The notes under the pieces were generated by a model. It searched no databases and was not told the origin of the DNA. It saw nothing but the letters and a program-made list of their open reading frames with translations. 24,000 nucleotides of DNA from an uncultured Candidatus Saccharibacteria bacterium (GTDB taxonomy: Bacteria; Patescibacteriota; Minisyncoccia; Phycocordibacterales; UBA918). Positions 1-23,124 of this stretch are shown here, in pieces; position 1 is the stretch's first letter; each line of letters begins with the position of its first letter. The position numbers and the translations under genes are program-made. The stretch lies in assembly GCA_964502345.1 (NCBI GenBank), contig CAZCWH010000006.1, positions 1,684-25,683 of the forward strand, read 5' to 3'.

Positions 1-1784
1 TTGGTTGCATTTGCAACACTGACCCCGACCTCCACTACTGAAGTTGCGACGAGGATGTCGATATCGTGTTCAAGAAACCGCTTCATCGTTTTCTCTTTTT
101 CAGCAGGGGTCATCTTGCTGTGAAGAATTCCAATACGCGCATCTTTAAAAACACTTTTCTTGAGACGCTCCGCCTCGCTCTTTACTGATTTAAGTTGGAG
201 CGCATTCTCCATAAGTGGATCAGGTTCATCGATGCGTGGGCAGATGACGTATGCCTGTCGTCCATCTTTGAGTTCACTTCGAATATGTTTATAGACCTCC
301 TCGATACGAGTAGGGAGGACAACTTTAGTAATGATGGGCTTTCGTCCTTTCGGCATCTCGTCGAGGAGCGTGATATCGAGATCCCCATAGACGGTGAGTG
401 CTAAGGTGCGGGGAATTGGTGTCGCGGTCATAGATAAGAGGTGCGGCATCCTCGTATCTTTTTTCGCGAGCGCGCGTCGCTGGTTTGTGCCAAAGCGGTG
501 TTGTTCATCTATGATGACGTGGGCAAGGTGCTTAAATGCAACGGACTTATAAATAAGTGCATGAGTACCAATGAGGATGGGAATCTCGCCGTTCTGTACC
601 CATTTCAAAAGTTGAGCCTTTGAGATGGTTGTTGGTTTTGTGGGGTCGGTTTTTGAGGGGAATTTCATGCAGCCACTCCCCGTAATGAGGCCAATCTGAA
701 TAGGGAGGTGATGGAAGTATTCAATGAAGGACTCAAAATGCTGACGGGCGAGAATTTCAGTCGGCGCCATGTATGCCACCTGGAGATTACCAAATTGAAG
801 TTTGCTCGTGAGCCCCTCAGGGGGTCGGGATGTCGCGACTGCGTATGCAGTGGTCGCTGCTACCGCTGTCTTGCCACTTCCCACATCTCCCTCAAGGAGG
901 CGTGACATTGGATGTTTCCCACTGAAGTCCTTAAGCATGGCGTTGATGGCCCTGGTCTGTGCTCCTGTGAGCGGAAAGGGGAATCGACTTGTGAATGCTT
1001 CGATGTGCTCCCTGTCAGTCATAAACTGGTAGCTCGTCGCCACATTTATCTGTGCACGTTCATGTGCTTTTGCTACCTGAATTGAAAATACTTCTTCAAA
1101 AGCAAAACGCTTTCGTGCACTTTCTGCATGCTCAGCTTTCTTTGGAGTGTGTATCCATATGAGTGCCGTATTGAGTAGGGGGAGGTTGTATCGCTTCAAA
1201 ATTTCTTCAGGAATTGGATCCGTGAGTTTCTCTAGCACTCCTGCGTTAAAACATTTTTGCACCGTATGGAAGAACCACTTTGAGGTCACCCCCTTTGTCT
1301 CCCGGTACACAGGATAGATGGTTTCATCGAGATTCTCAGTATTGTTGAAAATCGAATCATGACGATCAATCGGAAGGCTTTCTAATTTTTCAATTTCAGG
1401 GTTTGCGAGATACAACTTTCCCTCAGTTCCTGTTACTTTGCCGGCGAGCTTCACGTAGGCGCCATCGACGAGCATCTTTGCAATGTATGGTTGATTGAAC
1501 CACATGATTTTAATACGTGCAGTCCCGTCCTCCACCCATCCTTCCGATATCGGCACACGACTCTTCCATGACTTTCTTGTTTTGAGTCCTCCGATGGCTC
1601 CATAGACGACAGCATCCTGACCTTTTACAAGCGACCCAACTGACTGAATTGATGAAATATCTTCGTAGCGCTGAGGGAGATGAAGGAGGAGGTCCAAGAC
1701 AGTATGAATTCCAAGGCGCTTGAGCGCCTTTTGATGTACTGCATCAATTCGAAAGTGGGTAGTGAGGAGGTCGGTAGGTGACAT
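1..1784 (-). CDS. recG: ATP-dependent DNA helicase RecG (3' end truncated by window start)
   Basis: Absent from the ORF track because the frame runs off position 1. Manual reverse translation from the ATG (complement of 1784-1782) gives MSPTDLLTTHFRIDA. The same frame contains PMSRLLEGDVGSGKTAVAATTAY (Walker A, about 840-910), VIIDEQHRFGTNQ (DEQH box, about 485-520) and GILHSKMTPAEKEKTMKRFLEHDIDILVATSVVEVGVSVANAT (helicase C-terminal motifs, about 5-140). The short ORFs listed at 182-1032 lie inside it. Confidence 0.9.
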   Translation of the reverse strand, partial: MSPTDLLTTHFRIDAVHQKALKRLGIHTVLDLLLHLPQRYEDISSIQSVGSLVKGQDAVVYGAIGGLKTRKSWKSRVPISEGWVEDGTARIKIMWFNQPYIAKMLVDGAYVKLAGKVTGTEGKLYLANPEIEKLESLPIDRHDSIFNNTENLDETIYPVYRETKGVTSKWFFHTVQKCFNAGVLEKLTDPIPEEILKRYNLPLLNTALIWIHTPKKAEHAESARKRFAFEEVFSIQVAKAHERAQINVATSYQFMTDREHIEAFTSRFPFPLTGAQTRAINAMLKDFSGKHPMSRLLEGDVGSGKTAVAATTAYAVATSRPPEGLTSKLQFGNLQVAYMAPTEILARQHFESFIEYFHHLPIQIGLITGSGCMKFPSKTDPTKPTTISKAQLLKWVQNGEIPILIGTHALIYKSVAFKHLAHVIIDEQHRFGTNQRRALAKKDTRMPHLLSMTATPIPRTLALTVYGDLDITLLDEMPKGRKPIITKVVLPTRIEEVYKHIRSELKDGRQAYVICPRIDEPDPLMENALQLKSVKSEAERLKKSVFKDARIGILHSKMTPAEKEKTMKRFLEHDIDILVATSVVEVGVSVANAT

Positions 1785-1833
1785 AGCGCTAATAGTAGCA
1801 GAAAGACTGGCGACAAAAGAAAGCGAGGGTACA

Positions 1834-1861
1834 TTGACAATACGTCACTATATGTTATAAT
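1834..1861 (+). promoter_or_regulatory. Near-consensus sigma70-type promoter with extended -10
   Basis: TTGACA at 1834-1839, a 16-nt spacer, then TGtTATAAT (TG at 1853-1854, TATAAT at 1856-1861). It lies 23 nt upstream of the first ATG of the 1884 ORF. Confidence 0.55.
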
Positions 1862-1883
1862 ACAAAACAGGTGTCGCCCTTTA

Positions 1884-2957
1884 ATGAGTGGCGATTTTTG
1901 TTGTTTTCCAGTCGAGGAGCAAGTCATGGCCAGAGAAGGAATTCCGGGAAATATCACACAGAACGTCGAGAGCACCGAAGCTGGAAAGCAGCGCAAACGC
2001 GCCGCACGGAAAGCTGAGGAGAAGGCACGGCTCGCCCGGCAAGAGCAAAGCCAGAGGGACTCCGACAGAGCCTTCTTGACGCTTGCGTCGCAGGCGTCGC
2101 CCTCGCGGATGTACATCATCAGCGGGATTGTGGGCAAACGGGTGGTCCTCGACCTCTCCCATGTGAGTGGCGAGAAGACCATCAGCGGCAAGATCGTCGT
2201 CGAAGTGGTGCAGGTGCCGTTTGGCCCGCATGAGCTCGGCAGGCTGATTCCGGCCATCAAGGTCATCGGGTCGAACTACAGTTTGGTGCCTGCCGACCCA
2301 GATCTCTGGCTTCACGCCCACCTGCTCATGAAATCCGACTTTCAAACCAGGCTCGAAGGCCGCCGCGCCGAACAGCAACGCAAGATGTGGGAGGTGCTTC
2401 GGACGGCATGTGCAAAGGAAATCGAAGAAAAGAACCTCACCAGGAAGGTACGGCAAGAAGAGCCGCAGGGGCAAACGACTCCCGCCGGCCAAGTATCCAT
2501 CGAGGTCACACCTCCTGCGGTGCATGTTCCGGTTCGGCCTGCGTTCGATACGAGTGGTGCGGTCACCCTCACCGTTTCCCACATCGCGCAAAAGGCGGGA
2601 CAGTGGAATGGGGAGGTGCTCAAGGTGTGCGCCGAACGTGGCTGTGCATACTTCGTGCGTGAGTTGGTCGCGGGGTCGCGGAAGCTCGTTCTCGTGTACG
2701 CAGACGACGACCACGAGCTCGCGCCCATTCTCGACGCGCACGCGTCAGTGCAGCTGGACTTCGCGGAGTTTCTCCGAGCAGAACCCCAGCCGGCCCGTGA
2801 TCTTCACGATATCCGTGAGGCGCGGAAAGAGGTCGCTCGGTACGTGTACCACGAGCTCCGGAGGCTTGGACTGAAACCTCGGGTCGTACAGCAGGAAACG
2901 ACGAGCGCTCCTGCACTCAGGGTGAAGGACTTCAAGGCTCTGAGCCACGTGAAGTGA
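1884..2957 (+). CDS. Hypothetical protein, compositionally foreign (high GC, high GC3); no recognisable domain
   Basis: 357-aa ORF. The coding frame is supported by third-position bias: 18 of 20 codons from 2100 end in G or C. The alternative start at ATG 1926 (MAREGIPGN) is where GC begins to rise. Flanked by the promoter at 1834-1861 and the terminator at 2988-3038. Confidence 0.6.
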   Translation: MSGDFCCFPVEEQVMAREGIPGNITQNVESTEAGKQRKRAARKAEEKARLARQEQSQRDSDRAFLTLASQASPSRMYIISGIVGKRVVLDLSHVSGEKTISGKIVVEVVQVPFGPHELGRLIPAIKVIGSNYSLVPADPDLWLHAHLLMKSDFQTRLEGRRAEQQRKMWEVLRTACAKEIEEKNLTRKVRQEEPQGQTTPAGQVSIEVTPPAVHVPVRPAFDTSGAVTLTVSHIAQKAGQWNGEVLKVCAERGCAYFVRELVAGSRKLVLVYADDDHELAPILDAHASVQLDFAEFLRAEPQPARDLHDIREARKEVARYVYHELRRLGLKPRVVQQETTSAPALRVKDFKALSHVK

Positions 2958-2987
2958 GAAAACAATAGTTCCACGGAGGTACTCAAA

Positions 2988-3038
2988 GGCCCGAGGAGGA
3001 ATGCGCAAGCATTCGCTCCTCGGGCCTTTTTCTTTTTC
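2988..3038 (+). terminator. Rho-independent terminator
   Basis: GGCCCGAGGAG (2988-2998) pairs with CTCCTCGGGCC (3016-3026) and is followed by TTTTTCTTTTTCTT. Confidence 0.7.
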
Positions 3039-3089
3039 TTGTGTGACTGATGTCGTATACTGGTAACCTTATTCATTGTCTTATGCACT

Positions 3090-4274
3090 GTGTCAAAAAA
3101 AGCATCACCTAAAAAGGTAGTTTCAAAGAAAGTAGTAAAAAAGGATTATGGTAAGCTCGCACTCGCGCTCCATAAGAAACTCAAAGGAAAACTTTCAGTG
3201 ATCTCGAAAGGGAAACTCGAGACCCGCGATGACTGGAGCATGATGTATACGCCCGGTGTTGCTGCGGTTTCAAGTCATCTCGCAAAAAATCCTCGTGATG
3301 CGCGTGAGTATACGATTAAAGGTAATACTGTCGCAGTTGTAAGTGATGGTACGGCAGTGCTTGGGCTTGGGAATATCGGTCCTATTGCTGCACTTCCCGT
3401 CATGGAAGGGAAGTGCGCCATCCTCAAAGAGATGGCAGGGATTGATGGTTTCCCAATTGTGCTTGACGCACATAGCATTGATGAAATCGTCGCGACAGTA
3501 AAAAATATTGCTCCTGGATTTGGAGCGATTAACCTCGAAGATATCGCAGCTCCTCAGTGTTTTGAAATCGAAGAGCGTCTCAAAAAGGAGCTCAATATTC
3601 CAGTCATGCATGATGATCAGCACGGAACCGCGATTGTGGTTTTAGCTGGACTCATTAACGCCTCGAAAGTTGTAAAGAAAAAACTCGAGTCACTCAAGGT
3701 AGTGATTGTCGGTGCAGGAGCTGCAGGGCGAGCTATTGCACTCCTTCTCCTCAAAGCAGGAGTTACAGACGTGATTGTCGTAGATAGTAAGGGAATTATT
3801 TATAAAGGGCGCGGTGGCATGGTGTCATACAAGGAATCACTCGCCAAAATCACTAACCCACGAGGGGTGAAAGGGGAGTTACTTGAAGCGGTGACGGGAG
3901 CAGATGTGCTTGTTGGTGTTTCTGGCCCTGGGTCAGTCGCAAAGATGCATGTTGAGCGTATGGCAAAGGATGGAATTGTGTTTGCACTCGCAAATCCAAT
4001 TCCGGAAATTATGCCTGAGGACGCAAAAATGGCCGGTGCACGAGTGGTTGCTACTGGGCGCTCAGATATGCCAAATCAGGTCAACAACTCTCTCGCATTT
4101 CCAGGAATTTTTCGTGGGGCACTTGATCGCCGCATCAATGAAATCACAGATGAAATCAAACTAGCTGCAGCAAAAAAGTTGGCGAGCCTTGTAAAGAAGC
4201 CAATAGAGAATGAGATTATTCCGCACGTGTCGACACCAGGCCTCGTGAAGGCGGTTGCGAGTGTTGTGAAATAA
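3090..4274 (+). CDS. NAD(P)-dependent malic enzyme (short form, no phosphotransacetylase domain)
   Basis: 394 aa with a GTG start. Motifs YTPGVA, VAVVSDGTAVLGLGNIGPIAALPVMEGKCAILKEMAGID, NLEDIAAPQCFEIE, HDDQHGTA and the Rossmann motif VIVGAGAAGRA are all typical of the malic enzyme family. Confidence 0.92.
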   Translation: MSKKASPKKVVSKKVVKKDYGKLALALHKKLKGKLSVISKGKLETRDDWSMMYTPGVAAVSSHLAKNPRDAREYTIKGNTVAVVSDGTAVLGLGNIGPIAALPVMEGKCAILKEMAGIDGFPIVLDAHSIDEIVATVKNIAPGFGAINLEDIAAPQCFEIEERLKKELNIPVMHDDQHGTAIVVLAGLINASKVVKKKLESLKVVIVGAGAAGRAIALLLLKAGVTDVIVVDSKGIIYKGRGGMVSYKESLAKITNPRGVKGELLEAVTGADVLVGVSGPGSVAKMHVERMAKDGIVFALANPIPEIMPEDAKMAGARVVATGRSDMPNQVNNSLAFPGIFRGALDRRINEITDEIKLAAAKKLASLVKKPIENEIIPHVSTPGLVKAVASVVK

Positions 4275-4279
4275 GAAAA

Positions 4280-4309
4280 GGCCTCGACGTTACGTCGGGG
4301 CCTTTTTTA
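4280..4309. terminator. Bidirectional rho-independent terminator between convergent genes
   Basis: GGCCTCGACGT (4280-4290) pairs with ACGTCGGGGCC (4292-4302, one G.T). It is flanked by an A-run upstream and TTTTTT downstream, so it reads as hairpin plus U-tract on both strands. Confidence 0.7.
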
Positions 4310-4341
4310 TTGAGTTCTTATCCAGCAGTAAGTGTCGAGTG

Positions 4342-4911
4342 TTATTGATTGTAGAATTTCTCGAGATAGTCTTCCTCAGTCATCACGGTGACCCTTGCGT
4401 CATGAGTGGTGTGTTCATGGTTATGGTACGTCCATGTACCAACTTTTGTGAATGTAAAATTCCATGACCCTCCCATTTTTACCCATTCACATTGGTCAAA
4501 AGAACTTCCTGCACAGTCATCTCTTCCTTTTTCTGGGTACAAACTATGGATTGGGTGATTGTCTGATGCGATCCACATTTTGTCATCGCTCACGTTCATG
4601 AATTTAACCGTTCCACCCTTGATGATTGTGACTTTGTTTGGGAGGAACTTTTTTCCGTCGTATATGACAAATGCGGTGGTAGGGAGCACAGGTGCACTGT
4701 CTACTGCTGGTTTTTTTGCAGTTGAAACGAATTTTTGAGTAGCAGTTCCTAGAGGGGTAGTTTCAAGGCTTTCCGTCGTTGTACCCATATCACCTGTTGT
4801 CTCCAGAATTGGGTCATTGACCTCTGGTGCTGCAACCTGCTCTGTCTGCATGAAGTAGAGTACACAGACAATGGTAACTACAGTCACGAGCCCGATAAGT
4901 AGCTTATGCAT
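4342..4911 (-). CDS. Membrane-anchored secreted protein with C-terminal cupredoxin-like fold (putative)
   Basis: 189 aa. It has an N-terminal hydrophobic anchor (LLIGLVTVVTIVCVLYF), a Thr/Pro-rich linker, then KVTIIKGGTVKFMNVSDDKMW...HPIH...C...C...GTWTYHNHEH, which resembles plastocyanin/EfeO-type beta-sandwich proteins with His/Cys ligand candidates. Confidence 0.55.
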   Translation of the reverse strand: MHKLLIGLVTVVTIVCVLYFMQTEQVAAPEVNDPILETTGDMGTTTESLETTPLGTATQKFVSTAKKPAVDSAPVLPTTAFVIYDGKKFLPNKVTIIKGGTVKFMNVSDDKMWIASDNHPIHSLYPEKGRDDCAGSSFDQCEWVKMGGSWNFTFTKVGTWTYHNHEHTTHDARVTVMTEEDYLEKFYNQ

Positions 4912-4968
4912 ACTCTATTCTGTAACGAAAATGGGTATATGTGCAAGCAAATATAAGTGCTTCTAGAA

Positions 4969-5001
4969 TGTGGGATTTGATCCTTACAGGATCTGTTCAG
5001 G
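4969..5001 (-). repeat. 33-nt direct repeat, copy 1 (tRNA-Ser T-arm seed plus GATCC-TTACA-GGATC hairpin)
   Basis: TGTGGGATTTGATCCTTACAGGATCTGTTCAGG is identical to 5061-5093. Its first 12 nt equal 5199-5210 inside tRNA-Ser. Confidence 0.9.
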
Positions 5002-5060
5002 GATTTGGTCACAGATAAATTTCTTACAGAAATTTTCCGCGACCCCGACTCGCTGAAAGG

Positions 5061-5093
5061 TGTGGGATTTGATCCTTACAGGATCTGTTCAGG
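5061..5093 (-). repeat. 33-nt direct repeat, copy 2
   Basis: Identical to 4969-5001. With the preceding G, 13 nt (5060-5072) equal 5198-5210 of tRNA-Ser. Confidence 0.9.
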
Positions 5094-5143
5094 TTGTATG
5101 ATATTTTCTTATAGAAAATATCGACAACCTCTTCAAATCCCAC
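5062..5143 (-). ncRNA. Candidate structured RNA / hairpin module A (three-stem element, function unknown)
   Basis: Read on the minus strand there are four pairings. Outer stem: GTGGGATTTGA (comp. 5143-5133) with TCAAATCCCAC (comp. 5072-5062). AGGTTGT (comp. 5130-5124) pairs with ACAACCT (comp. 5097-5091). GATATTTTC pairs with GAAAATATC (5100-5108 and 5114-5122). Hairpin GATCC-TGTAA-GGATC lies at 5071-5085. The module is homologous to 22868-22932 on the plus strand, with compensatory changes in the stems. Confidence 0.45.
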
Positions 5144-5149
5144 GCGCAG

Positions 5150-5189
5150 AAACTAGAAATCCCATACAAAAGTATGGGATCTCTAGTTT
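5150..5189 (-). terminator. Long hairpin immediately 3' of tRNA-Ser (possible terminator or processing signal)
   Basis: An 18-nt arm at 5150-5167 pairs with 5172-5189 at 17 of 18 positions around an AAAA/TTTT loop. The 3' arm is U-rich on the minus strand (GGGAUUUCUAGUUU). The hairpin starts 2 nt after the tRNA discriminator base. Confidence 0.45.
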
Positions 5190-5191
5190 TG

Positions 5192-5278
5192 CGGAGAGTG
5201 TGGGATTTGAACCCACGAGGGTTTTAAGGCCCTGCCTCGTTAGCAGTGAGGTGCTTTCGACCACTCAGCCAACTCTCC
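5192..5278 (-). tRNA. tRNA-Ser (anticodon GCU), class II with long variable arm; CCA not encoded
   Basis: The minus strand reads GGAGAGT-TG-GCT-GAGTGGTCGAA-AGC-A-CCTCA-CTGCTAA-CGAGG-CAGGGCCTTAAAACCCTC-GTGGG-TTCAAAT-CCCAC-ACTCTCC-G. The acceptor, D and T stems pair. The anticodon stem has one A.C mismatch next to the loop. Confidence 0.9.
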
Positions 5279-5392
5279 GTGCGTTACTTCGCAAGAACGT
5301 TCTTACGAGAGTAATTGTTCGATTCGGTTTCCTCCTTTAGTCTGTTCGCGAAAGCTCACAACGACTAATCTGCTCACATTCGTTCGCAGACC

Positions 5393-5424
5393 GGACAAGA
5401 AATGAAATTGTTCATTTCTTGTCC
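5393..5424. repeat. Perfect 14-bp inverted repeat (hairpin) in the tRNA-Ser/comFC spacer
   Basis: GGACAAGAAATGAA (5393-5406), loop ATTG, TTCATTTCTTGTCC (5411-5424). No U-tract follows on either strand. It abuts a 13-nt copy of the tRNA-Ser D-loop region (5423-5435 equals 5261-5273). Confidence 0.8.
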
Positions 5425-5484
5425 ACTCAGCCAACAACCAGTTCTCTAGATGTGCAATGGACCGAGGAAGAATAGCATATTTTT

Positions 5485-6096
5485 TTAATGGGCTAAAGCG
5501 AGGCAGGTAACCCTAAGAGGAGCTGCCTTTTGCAAAGCTATCTTTGCGGATAGCATTGTTGCTCCCGTTGTCATCACATCATCAACAAGAACGATGTGTA
5601 GATAAGCGAGCGAGTCGGTCTTTTTAAGACTGAAAGCATTTAATACATTTTTAATACGCTCTTCTTTTGGAATTTCTGTTTGTGGACGTGTATTTTTAGT
5701 ACGAATAAGTAACTTCGGATTAATCACCATCGCAGGAATCAGGGCTTGTGTATTCAAGAGGATTTCGTGAATTTGATTATACCCGCGTTCACGCATTCTT
5801 TGAGCGGAAAGTGGCATTGGAATAAACACTGCATCTTGAAACTGCGTGTGTGAACCTACGTAGAGCGCTACGAGTTTACCAAGAAGCTTCTGTGCATGTG
5901 CATTGCCATGAAACTTCGCTTCATGAATAAGTGCGCGAACAGTAGGGTTCTTGAAATCACAAAGAGTGATGCAGCCGTTAAGTCCTTGCGGAGTAAGAAG
6001 TGTTGGCAAGAATGCGTCAGTAATATTTCGAACAACGAGCGTCTCAGTGCTTGGAGGGAAGAGTATATCAAAAAATTTTTGTACAAAGACATTCAT
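5485..6096 (-). CDS. comFC: ComF family protein (ComFC-type phosphoribosyltransferase-domain competence protein)
   Basis: 203 aa. The C-terminal PRTase signature is HIVLVDDVMTTGATMLSA. Size and layout match ComFC/GntX, and it is divergently adjacent to the pilus locus. Confidence 0.8.
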   Translation of the reverse strand: MNVFVQKFFDILFPPSTETLVVRNITDAFLPTLLTPQGLNGCITLCDFKNPTVRALIHEAKFHGNAHAQKLLGKLVALYVGSHTQFQDAVFIPMPLSAQRMRERGYNQIHEILLNTQALIPAMVINPKLLIRTKNTRPQTEIPKEERIKNVLNAFSLKKTDSLAYLHIVLVDDVMTTGATMLSAKIALQKAAPLRVTCLALAH

Positions 6097-6120
6097 ACGT
6101 AACGTGTGTGCAATGACTCA

Positions 6121-6129
6121 TGATAGAAT
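6121..6129 (+). promoter_or_regulatory. Possible extended -10 element upstream of pilM
   Basis: TGaTAGAAT at 6121-6129, 12 nt before the pilM ATG (6142). I found no convincing -35 and no Shine-Dalgarno sequence, so any transcript would have a very short leader. Confidence 0.3.
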
Positions 6130-6141
6130 ATTTCAGTCGAT

Positions 6142-7233
6142 ATGGCATTTGACCTATCAAAACTCAAGTCGGTCCTCAAGATGGACATCGCGAAGCCGGT
6201 AAAAAAAGCCGTGGTGGGTGTTGATGTGGGCTCCTCATCAATCAAGGTAGTACAGCTCTTTGATAGTAAGGGAGTGCCGACACTTGAGACATACGGTGAG
6301 TTGCAACTTGGCCCGTACGAGAACGTCGATATCGGACGCACAACCCATCTTCAAGCAGTGAAGCTTACCGAAGCATTTGTCGATATTTTGCGTGAGTCAT
6401 CGGTAACGGCTAAAGATGTTGCACTCGCAGTTTCATATAGTGGTAGTTTTACTTCAATTATTCCGATTCCTACCACAAATACAGCCCAAATTAGCGCCAT
6501 GGTACCGGTGGAGGCTCGAAAATACGTTCCTGTTCCACTTATTGAGGTGACACTCGATTGGTCACCGGTTTCATCGCTTTCTGATAAAGCTGAGACCAAG
6601 GTGCTTCTCATCGCAATTCATAATGAGGTTCTTAAGAAGTACGACATCATGGTTAAAGGAGCAGGACTGAACCCTGCCTTAAATGAAATAGAGATGTTTA
6701 GCTCAATTCGTTCGGCAGTTACTCAGGAAGACGACGTAGTCGCAATCATTGATATTGGCGCTGGCTCGACGAAAGTATATATCGCAGTGAAGGGGGTAGT
6801 TGCAAAGACACACAGTGTACTCATGAGTGGAGTCGAATGCACGAATGCGCTCTCACGCGCGCTTGCGGTAGATTTCAAAAATGCAGAAGAAATGAAACGC
6901 AGATTAGGGTTGCAGGGGACAACGGATGATCCGCGCGTTACAAAGGCTCTTGCCGAGATACTTGAGCGAGGATTCCGTGAGATTCATAAGGTCATGCGGC
7001 GTTTTGAAGAGACCGATGGTGTCGAGATACAGAAAGTTATCCTGAGTGGAAGCGGCTCACTCCTGCGCGGCATTGATTTATATGCACAAGATATGTTTTC
7101 AAAACCCGTAGTGATTGCTGATCCATTTTCTAAAGTTGCATATCCAGCATTCCTCGAAGATACACTCAAAGAGGCAGGCCCATCTTTCACGGTCGCTGTT
7201 GGTGCTGCCCTCCGTGCACTCATGGCCGAGTAG
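6142..7233 (+). CDS. pilM: Type IV pilus assembly protein PilM (actin-like ATPase fold)
   Basis: 363 aa. Contains VGVDVGSSSIKVVQL and AIIDIGAGSTKVYIA phosphate-binding motifs of the actin/FtsA-like fold. It sits first in the pilMNO arrangement. Confidence 0.85.
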   Translation: MAFDLSKLKSVLKMDIAKPVKKAVVGVDVGSSSIKVVQLFDSKGVPTLETYGELQLGPYENVDIGRTTHLQAVKLTEAFVDILRESSVTAKDVALAVSYSGSFTSIIPIPTTNTAQISAMVPVEARKYVPVPLIEVTLDWSPVSSLSDKAETKVLLIAIHNEVLKKYDIMVKGAGLNPALNEIEMFSSIRSAVTQEDDVVAIIDIGAGSTKVYIAVKGVVAKTHSVLMSGVECTNALSRALAVDFKNAEEMKRRLGLQGTTDDPRVTKALAEILERGFREIHKVMRRFEETDGVEIQKVILSGSGSLLRGIDLYAQDMFSKPVVIADPFSKVAYPAFLEDTLKEAGPSFTVAVGAALRALMAE

Positions 7234-7289
7234 CAATGTCCACACCTACTCTCAGTCATCCCGTCTGCTCGTGACGTATAATATGCAGG

Positions 7290-8009
7290 ATGGCAGAATC
7301 ACCACGTTCTTCGTTTATACCTAGACAGTCAAGTACTGCAATTCCTGCAAAGATGCAGCGAAGGAGAACATTTAGTGTGTTCAATTTTCTTGCGTCGGTA
7401 ATCCTTATTGCATCGCTCATTGCCGCAGGGGGTGCATATTTCTATAAGGGAGTAGCTGAGAAGAAGCTCGTTGAAGCACAACTCAAACTTAAGGCAGAGA
7501 GTGAGAAATTTGGTATTGAAAAACTCAATGAAGTTCGTGACTTTAATCGACAACTGCTCGCCGTAAGGTACCTACTCGACCACCATATTGCACCATCCAA
7601 GATTTTTGATGCACTAGAACTTGATACACTTGGGAGCGTACAGTTCATGGAATTTACGCTTGAGTATGATCCTGAGGTAAATGACGTGCTCCTCACCGTA
7701 CTCGGCGGTACAGAAGAATTCAAGACGGTTGCACTTCAGGCACTCAAGTTTAGTGAACAGCCACTTCTCAAGGACGCCTTCTTTACCGAACTTGGATCAA
7801 AAGAAGTAACAAGTAATGAAATTGGAGTTAGTGGTACTAATGACCAATTCGAGCATGAGGTCAATTTCACTGTTGCCGGCAAAGTCCCAAGTGAATTGCT
7901 TGTGTACGGTGGAACGGAAGCAACACAAGCCGTAACAGAGGGAGTGATGGAGGCAGAGACCGTCGAAGAAGTACCGCAAAGTCCAGAGACCGTCAGTAGC
8001 CCAATTTAA
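7290..8009 (+). CDS. PilN-like bitopic membrane protein (by topology and position)
   Basis: 239 aa with a basic N-terminus, a single TM helix (FNFLASVILIASLIAAGGAYFY) and a coiled-coil segment. It lies directly after pilM. The start is uncertain; ATG 7353 is an alternative. Confidence 0.5.
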   Translation: MAESPRSSFIPRQSSTAIPAKMQRRRTFSVFNFLASVILIASLIAAGGAYFYKGVAEKKLVEAQLKLKAESEKFGIEKLNEVRDFNRQLLAVRYLLDHHIAPSKIFDALELDTLGSVQFMEFTLEYDPEVNDVLLTVLGGTEEFKTVALQALKFSEQPLLKDAFFTELGSKEVTSNEIGVSGTNDQFEHEVNFTVAGKVPSELLVYGGTEATQAVTEGVMEAETVEEVPQSPETVSSPI

Positions 8010-13619: not shown

Positions 13620-14051
13620 ATGATGAACAATAATACATACAAACGAGGTTTCACACTCATCGAGCTCCTCGTAGTGATCGCCATCATCGGTATCCTTGCA
13701 TCCGTTGTACTCGCGTCACTAAACTCAGCTCGCGATAAGGGTGCAGATGCAGCTGCAAAGTCTTCAATGAATAACGCTCGAGCGCAGTCAGAGTTGTACT
13801 ACGATGACAATGCTCGAACATACACAACTGTATGTACAGCGGGTACTAACAACATTTCACCATTGCTTGATGCAGCCGATGCTGCAGTTACAGCTGCAGA
13901 TGCTTGTTTTGATACTGCCGCGGGTTGGGCAGCATCAATCGACCTCAATGCAACTGGAGCAGCAGGTTGGTACTGCGTTGATAGTACAGGATTCGGAGGT
14001 ACACTTGCAGCTGACCCTGCAATTTCGGACGCAAACCTTACTTGTCTATAG
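13620..14051 (+). CDS. Type IV pilin (probable major pilin)
   Basis: 143 aa. Prepilin signature KRG/FTLIELLVVIAIIGILASVVL (class III signal peptide with Glu5). The C-terminal domain has four Cys, giving two potential disulfides. Confidence 0.9.
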   Translation: MMNNNTYKRGFTLIELLVVIAIIGILASVVLASLNSARDKGADAAAKSSMNNARAQSELYYDDNARTYTTVCTAGTNNISPLLDAADAAVTAADACFDTAAGWAASIDLNATGAAGWYCVDSTGFGGTLAADPAISDANLTCL

Positions 14052-22867: not shown

Positions 22868-22932
22868 AAGAGGTTGTCCATATTTCGAGTTTACGAGAAA
22901 TATGATACAACCTGAACAGGTTCTGTAAGAAC
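22868..22932 (+). ncRNA. Candidate structured RNA / hairpin module B (homologue of module A at 5062-5143)
   Basis: Sequence: AAGAGGTTGTC-CATATTTC-(loop)-GAAATATG-AT-ACAACCTGAACAG-GTTC-TGTAA-GAAC. It shares AAGAGGTTGTC and ATACAACCTGAACAG with module A. In the stems, paired positions are changed on both sides. Confidence 0.45.
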
Positions 22933-22967: not shown

Positions 22968-23030
22968 AGAGGAGAGGTACCTCGGGAGGCTCATAACCTC
23001 CAGACCCCGGTTCGATTCCGGGCCCCGCAA
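22960..23030 (+). tRNA. Initiator tRNA-Met (anticodon CAU); CCA not encoded
   Basis: Reads CGCGGGG-TA-GAGG-AGAGGTA-CCTC-G-GGAGG-CTCATAA-CCTCC-AGAC-CCCGG-TTCGATT-CCGGG-CCCCGCA-A. All four stems pair. The C1xA72 mismatch and A11:U24 pair are bacterial initiator determinants. It is 71 nt long, with a short D loop and a 4-nt variable loop. Confidence 0.88.
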
Positions 23031-23035
23031 CAAGA

Positions 23036-23074: not shown

Positions 23075-23124
23075 GTTGCGGGGCCAGCAAGCAAAATGCT
23101 TTGCTTGCGTCGGAATCGAACGAG
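23075..23124 (-). pseudogene. Inverted, degenerate copy of the initiator tRNA 3' half interrupted by a 22-nt hairpin
   Basis: GTTGCGGGGCC (23075-23085) is the exact reverse complement of tRNA positions 23021-23031. GGAATCGAAC (23112-23121) is the reverse complement of the T-loop segment 23010-23019. Between them lies the hairpin GCAAGCAAA-ATGC-TTTGCTTGC (23087-23108). The T stem does not pair, so this is not a functional tRNA. Confidence 0.5.

Follow-up and report, generated by a model that had tools for sequence, protein, structure and literature searches.

A GC-rich gene between recG and the malic enzyme gene belongs to a small, fast-diverging Patescibacteria-like family and is probably a long-standing resident of its slot

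Why should a single gene be much richer in G+C than everything around it, carry its own promoter and terminator, and resemble no annotated protein? This question is raised by an open reading frame (ORF) lying between recG and the malic enzyme gene on contig CAZCWH010000006.1 of an uncultured Candidatus Saccharibacteria bacterium, of which we analysed a stretch of 24,000 nucleotides (positions 1,684 to 25,683; "the window" hereafter). A first-pass annotation, made from the sequence alone, took this ORF for a recently acquired orphan cassette and speculated that, if the organism is an episymbiont, its high-GC host might have been the source. Our analysis points elsewhere: we think it fairly probable that this is a long-resident, strongly expressed and fast-diverging lineage-specific gene that encodes a basic two-module protein, and that its GC-richness is kept by a force acting on the gene body.

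The compositional contrast itself was confirmed. The whole window has a GC content of about 45%, and the hand counts that first drew attention to the locus were reproduced exactly (37 G+C among the 60 bases at 2041-2100 and 27 among the 60 at 3661-3720; G or C at the third position of 18 of 20 codons from 2100 and of 6 of 20 codons from 3318, both in frame). The ORF at 1884-2957, which would encode 357 amino acids, has a GC content of 0.601 and a third-position GC content (GC3) of 0.707. Counted from the ATG at 1926, GC3 is 0.718 against a mean of 0.399 (standard deviation 0.041, range 0.28-0.49) in the 23 other ORFs of the window (z = 7.7), while total GC is 0.607 against 0.449 +/- 0.019 (z = 8.4); the sliding-window GC profile agrees, with a ceiling elsewhere of 0.54 in 300-nt windows (positions 1-8000) and of 0.52 in 600-nt windows (whole 24 kb). 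A two-boundary maximum-likelihood change-point analysis and a fine-scale GC profile placed a block of GC 0.61 at 1964-3026, which begins about 40 nt inside the coding sequence and stops at the 3' foot of the terminator stem. The GC contents of the three codon positions of the ORF are 0.67 (GC1), 0.43 (GC2) and 0.71 (GC3), its four-fold sites are rich in both G (0.39) and C (0.32), and the amino-acid content of the product is shifted (Arg 9.0% versus 4.7%, Ile 4.4% versus 7.6%). Stop codons are sparse in the other frames of the gene (1-13 per 994 nt versus 6-26 in the malic enzyme gene), and the long spurious ORFs that had been attributed to this sparseness are indeed present, with shadow ORFs of 286, 154, 128, 98, 94, 91 and 87 amino acids overlapping the gene. 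The 286-aa ORF lies antisense, codon-for-codon opposite the gene, with a mirrored GC pattern, such that composition alone does not discriminate between the two.

The gene is not an orphan. An exhaustive phmmer/HMMER search of 1.84 billion representative proteins returned 24 other cluster representatives, 12 of them with E ≤ 1e-10; the best E-value was 8e-32, only P0002 fell below 1e-30, identities were 24-46%, most matches were full-length, and the family alignment is colinear over the full length. The family was seen because this search was exhaustive: a word-indexed homologue search found the query alone and missed nearly all members, and a family profile added one member only. The exact query sequence occurs on one contig only in the database searched, and a metagenome scan returned two contigs only, whose proteins were already among the known homologues. 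The earlier statement that the product has no recognisable domain stood up well: Pfam, NCBIfam, PHROGs (best E-value 0.13) and PADLOC gave nothing usable and Foldseek gave no significant match. One family member has a weak SAVED_TM match in PADLOC (E 0.003) over a low-complexity linker, with none in the other 22 members, and a Pfam scan of 23 family members gave no PurA or dsrm match.

The relatives hold this family in the same place. In the window, the conserved left flank is recG (3-1784, minus strand; Pfam RecG_wedge, DEAD and Helicase_C), which is divergently transcribed and runs off the window after its N-terminal 594 codons, and the conserved right flank is the NAD(P)-malic enzyme gene (3090-4274, plus strand; Pfam malic and Malic_M). 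The recG/malic enzyme slot also holds a family member at loci L081, L084, L085, L087, L088 and L090, which with the window makes seven genomes or populations; since they share the arrangement and come from independent NCBI, ENA and Logan assemblies, an assembly chimera is excluded. The order recG(-), family gene(+), malic enzyme(+) is found in L088, L089 and L094-L096 (P0026 and variants), with an additional 406-aa ORF after recG in L090 (P0011), and with a 158-aa and a 407-aa ORF at that place in L085 (P0004). The family gene is followed by the malic enzyme gene in L086 (P0004), and by a 120-aa ORF and then the malic enzyme gene in L087 (P0005); L081 (P0002) and L084 (P0003) have recG directly upstream, 78% and 81% identical to the partial RecG of the window. 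The first-pass annotation had named the same gene at the same junction in relatives, with similar composition, as the observation that would speak against a recent acquisition, and this is what we found, with a GC3 excess in five of the six other genomes. Residence in the slot probably predates the divergence of these genomes.

Two other contexts were recovered, infB-rbfA-gene (L082, L083) and RNase J-gene-ddl (L097, L098), where the gene is again a stand-alone cassette among housekeeping genes, and every recoverable context of the family is Patescibacteria-like. A scan of the GTDB representative genomes with the gene product gave no match, and none of 80 malic enzyme loci of GTDB representatives (at most 72% identity) holds a family member, which together indicate that the clade is absent from the species representatives and that the family is narrowly distributed. 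The nearest relatives of the window's malic enzyme among species representatives are those of Nomurabacteria and other Patescibacteria, at 70-72% identity.

The GC excess recurs across the family. GC3 of the family gene exceeds that of adjacent genes in the window (0.72 versus 0.40), L085 (0.80 versus 0.43-0.50), L087 (0.87 versus 0.32-0.58), L090 (0.69 versus about 0.5), L082 (0.67 versus 0.39-0.47), L097 (0.69 versus 0.48-0.62), L088 (0.63 versus about 0.47) and L084 (0.61 versus 0.43), and it is 0.80 in L093, where the total GC of the flanks is 0.45-0.49; only in L081 is it close to its neighbours (0.37 versus 0.40). It is thus elevated in nine of ten alleles, in three genomic contexts, and clearly below the host in none. 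Only the coding body carries the excess: GC content is 0.29-0.45 in the 100 nt upstream, and in 8 of 9 loci the first 13 codons are lower in GC than the remainder. The enrichment affects C as well as G, in NNY and NNR codons and in four-fold ones, which argues for a general GC pressure and not for tRNA-type codon selection. Translationally selected codon usage was rejected on this rise of C and G in all synonymous classes, and also because the putative major pilin gene, compared here as no ribosomal protein genes were available, has a GC3 of only 0.37. The idea that fast-evolving genes are generally GC-rich in this lineage was likewise set aside: a 189-aa hypothetical protein shares just 41-44% identity with its orthologues, yet its gene (4342-4911) has a normal GC3, and divergence alone therefore does not raise GC. 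These sequence comparisons suggest that the coding sequences of the family have long been GC-rich, and that this composition is not left over from a donor.

The family protein diverges far more than what surrounds it. RecG of L085, L088 and L090 is 82-84% identical to that of the window, malic enzymes are 71-81% identical among the syntenic genomes, and other genes compared between these genomes encode proteins with identities of 72-73% (an ABC ATPase and FtsX) or 48% (an HlyD-like protein). Family proteins, in contrast, are only 28-35% identical between syntenic genomes, or 37% for L081, the closest relative, and their identity does not follow that of the malic enzyme. Two insertions are common to the L085 and L088 alleles and absent from the window, L081, L084 and L090, whereas malic enzyme similarity pairs L085 with L090, in a comparison with saturated distances and few taxa; this conflict speaks slightly more for allele exchange or old polymorphism than for plain vertical divergence, as far as can be read from the alignments. 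At the other extreme of relatedness, four near-clonal strains show no synonymous flank differences (in the clonal population of L095 and L088, this holds for the genes of RecG, malic enzyme and an ABC-3 (PF00950) transporter permease), and their family genes differ by one 27-bp in-frame deletion and one substitution. The deletion, seen when L095 6001-6969 is compared with L088 10001-10996, is bounded by CAG microhomology and removes 9 residues before the Q.EL helix; a 333-aa form among these strains is a difference in start-codon calls. One deletion and one substitution in four near-clonal strains are too few to speak for or against hypermutation within a population.

Capsule, O-antigen, flagellin, pilin and S-layer loci are hypervariable between conserved housekeeping genes, and they are usually AT-richer than the genome. 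The present locus resembles them in its conserved flanks (71-84%) around a 28-37% identical centre, and in allele classes that do not clearly follow the flanks; its strong stand-alone expression signals and structured 5' leader are also reminiscent of S-layer genes. It differs in being GC-richer than the genome, in that every allele encodes a member of the same protein family with a single fold, and in that the product is basic, predicted to be cytoplasmic, and has no signal peptide, transmembrane segment or surface-targeting feature. A diversity-generating retroelement target was rejected too: no repeat of the gene body occurs in the window, and no reverse transcriptase was found among the Pfam-scanned window ORFs (a few short ORFs were not scanned).

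The gene is bracketed by its own expression signals. The near-consensus promoter described by the first-pass annotation is confirmed at 1834-1861 on the plus strand, with a -35 box TTGACA (1834-1839), a 16-nt spacer ending in TGt (extended -10) and a -10 box TATAAT (1856-1861): this sigma-70 promoter matches the consensus at 12 of 12 positions plus the TG, when shuffled sequences are expected to contain 0.7 +/- 0.8 sites. Near-consensus promoters also precede the family gene in L081, L082, L084, L085, L087, L088 and L097, and most family genes combine one of the TTGACA-17-TATAAT type with a hairpin near the transcription start, a U-rich run behind it and a strong Shine-Dalgarno motif. The 5' leader (1873-1907, plus strand) consists of a stem-loop (1873-1895) near the likely transcription start and a U-rich run (1896-1907). 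The predicted fold of 1870-1928 has a folding free energy of -14.9 kcal/mol (z = -1.66), which is weak by itself; a 5'-proximal hairpin nevertheless recurs at the equivalent position in L082, L087, L088 and L090, without sequence conservation and each time weak (z -0.85 to -2.45 across the family). Such a hairpin may act as an mRNA stabiliser.

Reading of the sequence further identified a Shine-Dalgarno motif, GAGGAG (1914-1919, plus strand), 6 nt 5' of the ATG at 1926, as relatives have AAGGAG or GGAGG ahead of their start. Because of this spacing, and because family N-termini align from that Met (Met15; MAREG... versus MAK...), the real start is probably ATG 1926 and the product 343 aa long. 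The 14 in-frame codons upstream (1884-1925, plus strand), included by the first-pass annotation and by the NCBI gene call, are probably 5' untranslated region, given that no Shine-Dalgarno motif precedes 1884, that they overlap the leader hairpin and that family N-termini start at Met15. An intrinsic terminator lies at 2985-3040 (plus strand), with a G+C core stem at 2988-3026 (GGCCCGAGGAGGAATGC-GCAA-GCATTCgCTCCTCGGGCC) followed by UUUUUCUUUUUCUU: its hairpin has a folding free energy of -39.9 kcal/mol (z = -7.1; 0 of 200 shuffles equally stable), directly next to a U-tract, in agreement with the GC-rich terminator first described. A simple terminator scan made no call at 2985-3040, presumably since the nested stem does not fit the plain stem-loop pattern of that scan. 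GGCCCG...CGGGCC-U terminators are likewise found 3' of the gene in L085, L087, L088 and L090, and hairpin-plus-U terminators with other stems in L081, L084 and L097. The proposed self-contained single-gene unit is thus supported by the promoter, Shine-Dalgarno motif and terminator that bracket it, although its length of 357 aa probably has to be revised. These signals suggest high, constitutive expression from a stabilised monocistronic mRNA.

The coding sequence (1926-2957, plus strand, 343 codons plus stop) encodes a 38-kDa protein with an isoelectric point (pI) of 9.4, and pI is at least 7.8 in 19 of 23 aligned members. Neither a signal peptide nor a transmembrane segment is predicted, because the N-terminus is strongly hydrophilic (mean Kyte-Doolittle value of -1.17 for 30 aa) and hydropathy in 19-residue windows peaks at 1.11. 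Four regions follow one another on the plus strand. Residues 1-56 (1926-2093) form a basic N-terminal arm and long helix with 12 Lys+Arg and a segment pI of 10.4, in which a pattern MAKK..GGKQNA..G.V...SEAGRxRKRAxR is recognisable and the SEAGRxRKRAxR motif is kept in most members. Module 1 (residues 57-180; 2094-2465) comprises a short helix, a three-stranded meander, a short strand and helix, and a long helix pair (modelled helices H62-66 and H146-178; strands E72-81, E84-98, E107-116 and E128-130), with the conserved motifs V.V.GS.F.PIP...L.LP and then Q.EL..ALR. A Pro/Ala/Val-rich linker (residues 181-212; 2466-2561) varies so much in length and sequence that it cannot be aligned across the family. 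Module 2 (residues 213-318; 2562-2879) has the same order of elements and the best-conserved motifs, AYF.R...GA.KL.L...D.HPLA.LLD.H..V.VD and, in the C-terminal helix, GDLHD[VI]R.AR..V..YLR; at least 90% of 23 sequences share H272 and A299. Variants of this architecture exist: a 158-aa ORF beside recG in L085 (7611-8087) aligns with the family profile along module 1 alone (E 1e-7), as a stand-alone module-1 paralogue, and P0005 (487 aa) and P0017/P0031 (462 aa) exceed the typical length by about 120-140 residues, P0005 having two matched stretches in the search and an extra region that reads like a second module 1.

Structure prediction with AlphaFold2 (AF2) gave a mean confidence (pLDDT) of 45.7 from the single sequence and of 86.4 once the family alignment was supplied. 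The model contains a long helix at residues 10-56 (block pLDDT 85-98) and two alpha+beta modules separated by a disordered linker (pLDDT <50 at residues 188-197); both modules share the order short helix, three-stranded meander, short strand or helix, long helix. An internal sequence duplication was considered on account of weak colinear BLAST matches and then rejected, since a profile-profile comparison of the two modules by hhalign gave no significant score, and the duplication accordingly holds only at the level of element order. Foldseek searches of PDB and BFVD gave no significant match (best E 0.067; probability at most 0.15 for the leading matches and at most 0.23 for any listed PDB match; template-modelling score at most 0.29), and PDB sequences searched with a profile yielded nothing beyond a spurious match to inducible nitric oxide synthase (E 0.31). 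PURA chains and chains with tandem double-stranded RNA-binding domains (dsRBDs) recur among the top weak Foldseek matches, and these proteins, like ours, have two meander-plus-long-helix modules (3-4 strands), a flexible linker and a basic arm ahead. Their modules are smaller, however (65-80 aa for PUR-alpha, beta-beta-beta-beta-alpha, and dsRBD, alpha-beta-beta-beta-alpha, versus about 110 aa here). There is no significant structural or profile similarity to PUR-alpha or Whirly-like repeat proteins (E at least 0.067), and a tandem dsRBD is compatible in element order, but Foldseek E-values to DRB4 and MLE are at least 1.0. Charge and this non-significant resemblance suggest that the product may bind nucleic acids, as a probably abundant cytoplasmic protein.

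We therefore propose the following reading of the locus. The cassette would be this genome's copy of a small, unannotated, lineage-restricted family of Patescibacteria-like genomes, probably located in the recG/malic enzyme slot since before these genomes diverged. A perfect sigma-70 promoter, leader hairpin, strong Shine-Dalgarno motif and very stable terminator would make it a monocistronic unit built for strong expression, and its product would be a soluble, basic 38-kDa protein in which an N-terminal helical arm rich in Lys and Arg precedes two alpha+beta modules, with a disordered linker between these. A divergence several-fold above that of the neighbours could come from diversifying selection, or from the exchange of old alleles by recombination in the conserved flanks. 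Two candidate forces could keep the gene body GC-rich: GC-biased gene conversion (gBGC), if the gene recombines frequently, or selection that favours a stable transcript rich in GC. In bacteria at large, genes with evidence of intragenic recombination tend to have a higher GC content, a correlation that does not depend on codon selection (PMC4450053), and the present gene is similar in that C and G are enriched in all synonymous classes and that the effect is restricted to particular genes, here at a locus of plausible allele exchange. The type IV pilus cluster and ComF-like protein encoded in the window, being of the kind used for DNA uptake, may be mentioned beside this first candidate.

Several observations weigh against this proposal. 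The L081 allele, which is in the same slot and the closest relative (37%), lacks the GC3 excess, which also makes GC-richness dispensable for function. The probable major pilin gene (13620-14051), expected to be highly expressed, is not GC3-rich. When mRNA structure was compared with synonymous shuffles, family genes gave z-scores of -2.0, -2.9, -4.9 and -11.1, and one malic enzyme control already gave -4.2. The allele classes look incongruent with the flanks, which fits allele exchange better than simple vertical descent. The case for nucleic-acid binding consists of charge and of a non-significant likeness to PUR/dsRBD tandem repeats. Finally, to our knowledge, a GC3 excess of +0.3 to +0.45 goes beyond anything attributed to gBGC or GC selection in bacteria, and the effect across the loci (+0.1 to +0.45) is much larger than those so far ascribed to bacterial gBGC.

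If the excess does not arise within the gene, it could be imported repeatedly. Alleles might be swapped periodically into the slot as a recombination hot spot, with recG and the malic enzyme gene as homology arms, from an unsampled GC-rich pool (a mobile element or GC-rich relatives), such that donor composition is continually renewed; we regard this as rather unlikely, but as the most serious competitor. It would account for the strongly diverged centre inside well-conserved flanks, for a GC increase at all three codon positions with Arg/Ala-shifted amino acids, as if from a GC-rich genome, for the wide span of allele GC3 (0.37-0.87), for the varying slot content (GC-rich genes for acidic 406/407-aa proteins in L085 and L090, and the module-1 paralogue in L085) and for the conflict between the shared-insertion class and malic enzyme similarity. 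Such a pool, however, was not encountered: no member was found in a GC-rich context, the ten loci with recoverable DNA being on contigs with a GC content of 0.43-0.56 whose other genes have a GC3 of 0.32-0.62. A phage, plasmid or viral-contig reservoir was rejected on searches by tblastn of INPHARED phages (no match) and PLSDB plasmids (one match, at E = 0.04 only) and on three scans of IMG/VR viral contigs (no match). No integrase, transposase, attachment (att) repeats or flanking tRNA was found at the cassette borders in the window, where the tRNAs lie at 5191 and 22960 and where the few repeats that reach into the cassette are weak two-copy matches at chance level (72-81% identity), shared with far-off positions and forming no flanking pairs. 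Moreover, every cassette has an AT-rich consensus promoter and leader, and alleles are never clearly GC-poorer than their host, whereas random import between genomes of differing GC would predict some that are.

A single recent acquisition from a high-GC donor, possibly an episymbiont host, appears very improbable. This idea of the first-pass annotation agrees with the sharp GC step (z about 8 for GC and GC3), the self-contained expression signals and the lack of an annotated domain, all of which are also typical of horizontal-transfer islets. Yet RecG is only 78-84% identical among the six genomes with the same slot, so that residence predates their divergence, and proteins that are 28-37% identical cannot all derive from a single recent import. 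A high-GC host as donor finds no support either: all ten loci with recoverable DNA have a moderate GC content, no homologue outside this small family was found among the 1.84 billion representatives, well-sampled high-GC phyla included, and the GC of promoters and 5' leaders is host-like or lower. The cassette also differs from horizontal-transfer islets in that its GC lies above that of the host and not below, in that mobility genes, att repeats and border tRNAs are missing, in that the gene is at the same site in all six relatives examined, and in that its atypical composition recurs in alleles that are about 30% identical.

An artefact, that is, an assembly chimera or a GC-rich non-coding stretch with a chance long ORF, can practically be dismissed: high GC does cut stop frequency and create several long overlapping ORFs, and the exact sequence is on one contig only, but the arrangement and GC step recur in independent assemblies, protein-level conservation reaches E = 8e-32, the high pLDDT (86) appears only with the family alignment, and the chosen frame shows the GC1 > GC2 < GC3 coding pattern and is the one bracketed by promoter, Shine-Dalgarno motif and terminator.

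Besides recG and the malic enzyme gene, the window encodes a ComF-like phosphoribosyltransferase, a type IV pilus cluster (PilM, PilB, PilT, PilC, pilins and prepilin peptidase), LigA and GatA. Two perfect direct copies of a 33-nt repeat (TGTGGGATTTGATCCTTACAGGATCTGTTCAGG), spaced by 92 nt, are present at 4969-5001 and 5061-5093, a short way 3' of tRNA-Ser(gct) (5191-5278, minus strand), and resemble the T-arm end of that tRNA; the overlapping 32-nt stretch 5075-5106 has a 91% inverted copy at 22898-22929, about 30 nt upstream of tRNA-Met. These repeats may represent remnants of tRNA fragments or of att-like sequences. Another perfect direct repeat, of 22 nt (22823-22844/22946-22967), covers the 14 nt upstream of tRNA-Met and its first 8 nt, with the other copy 123 nt upstream, and the 3' end of tRNA-Met (23011-23031) has an 81% inverted copy 43 nt downstream (23075-23095).

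The slot contains further elements in relatives. A conserved non-coding element is present in it in L088 (9613-9870), L090 (9640-9900), L085 (8163-8420) and L093 (about 154-400), with its own TTGAC(A/G)-17-TA..AT promoter and its own terminator in L088, L090 and L085, which are not visible in L093. Given these signals, the element probably encodes a small RNA of about 250-290 nt. Its nucleotide identity is about 75%, versus about 30% amino-acid identity for the adjacent protein gene; RNAalifold of the four sequences gave 29 pairs, 5 of them with compensatory changes, no Rfam match was found even at E ≤ 1, and blastn with word size 7 found no copy in the window. A second hypervariable slot gene with a GC3 of 0.72-0.77 is present in L085 (8600-9823), L090 (8323-9543) and L086 (2-529) and absent from the window. 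It encodes a very acidic protein of 406/407 aa (pI 4.5, 86 Asp+Glu) with the motifs HYFGFAGKGDGFEEYVE and GTPR.V, 33-34% identical between L085 and L090; this protein has no Pfam match on record, is unrelated to the family profile and was not found in IMG/VR. Short GC3-rich ORFs with no Pfam match on record also exist elsewhere in relatives, at L082 803-1063 (minus strand, 0.75, with a signal-peptide-like start, MRKNLIALSIACLVAGLGLVAQAG) and L090 4073-4558 (0.70), and these genomes may thus carry a small class of GC-rich lineage-specific genes beyond the slot.

We tentatively raise a broader possibility, which we hold to be less probable than not by a clear step: the slot might house an undescribed Patescibacteria-specific system, made of an abundant, fast-diverging basic protein joined in some genomes by the acidic 406/407-aa protein and a small RNA, with the GC3 of the protein genes held 0.1-0.45 above the genome by a gene-specific force over long periods. 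If so, it would represent either an unusually strong case of gene-specific gBGC or GC selection in bacteria, or a ribonucleoprotein or conflict system (host interaction, anti-phage) unique to ultra-small bacteria.

Atypical composition is routinely read as a sign of recent horizontal transfer, and this reading would be wrong here, where a gene family is retained at one chromosomal site and stays GC-rich while its members drift apart to about 30% amino-acid identity. Should GC-biased conversion or transcript selection be the cause, the locus would offer a compact natural test case with a large effect and with the L081 allele as an internal control. As an uncharacterised, apparently highly expressed Patescibacteria-like family with a confident model and no significant structural match, it would also be a reasonable target for expression and binding studies.

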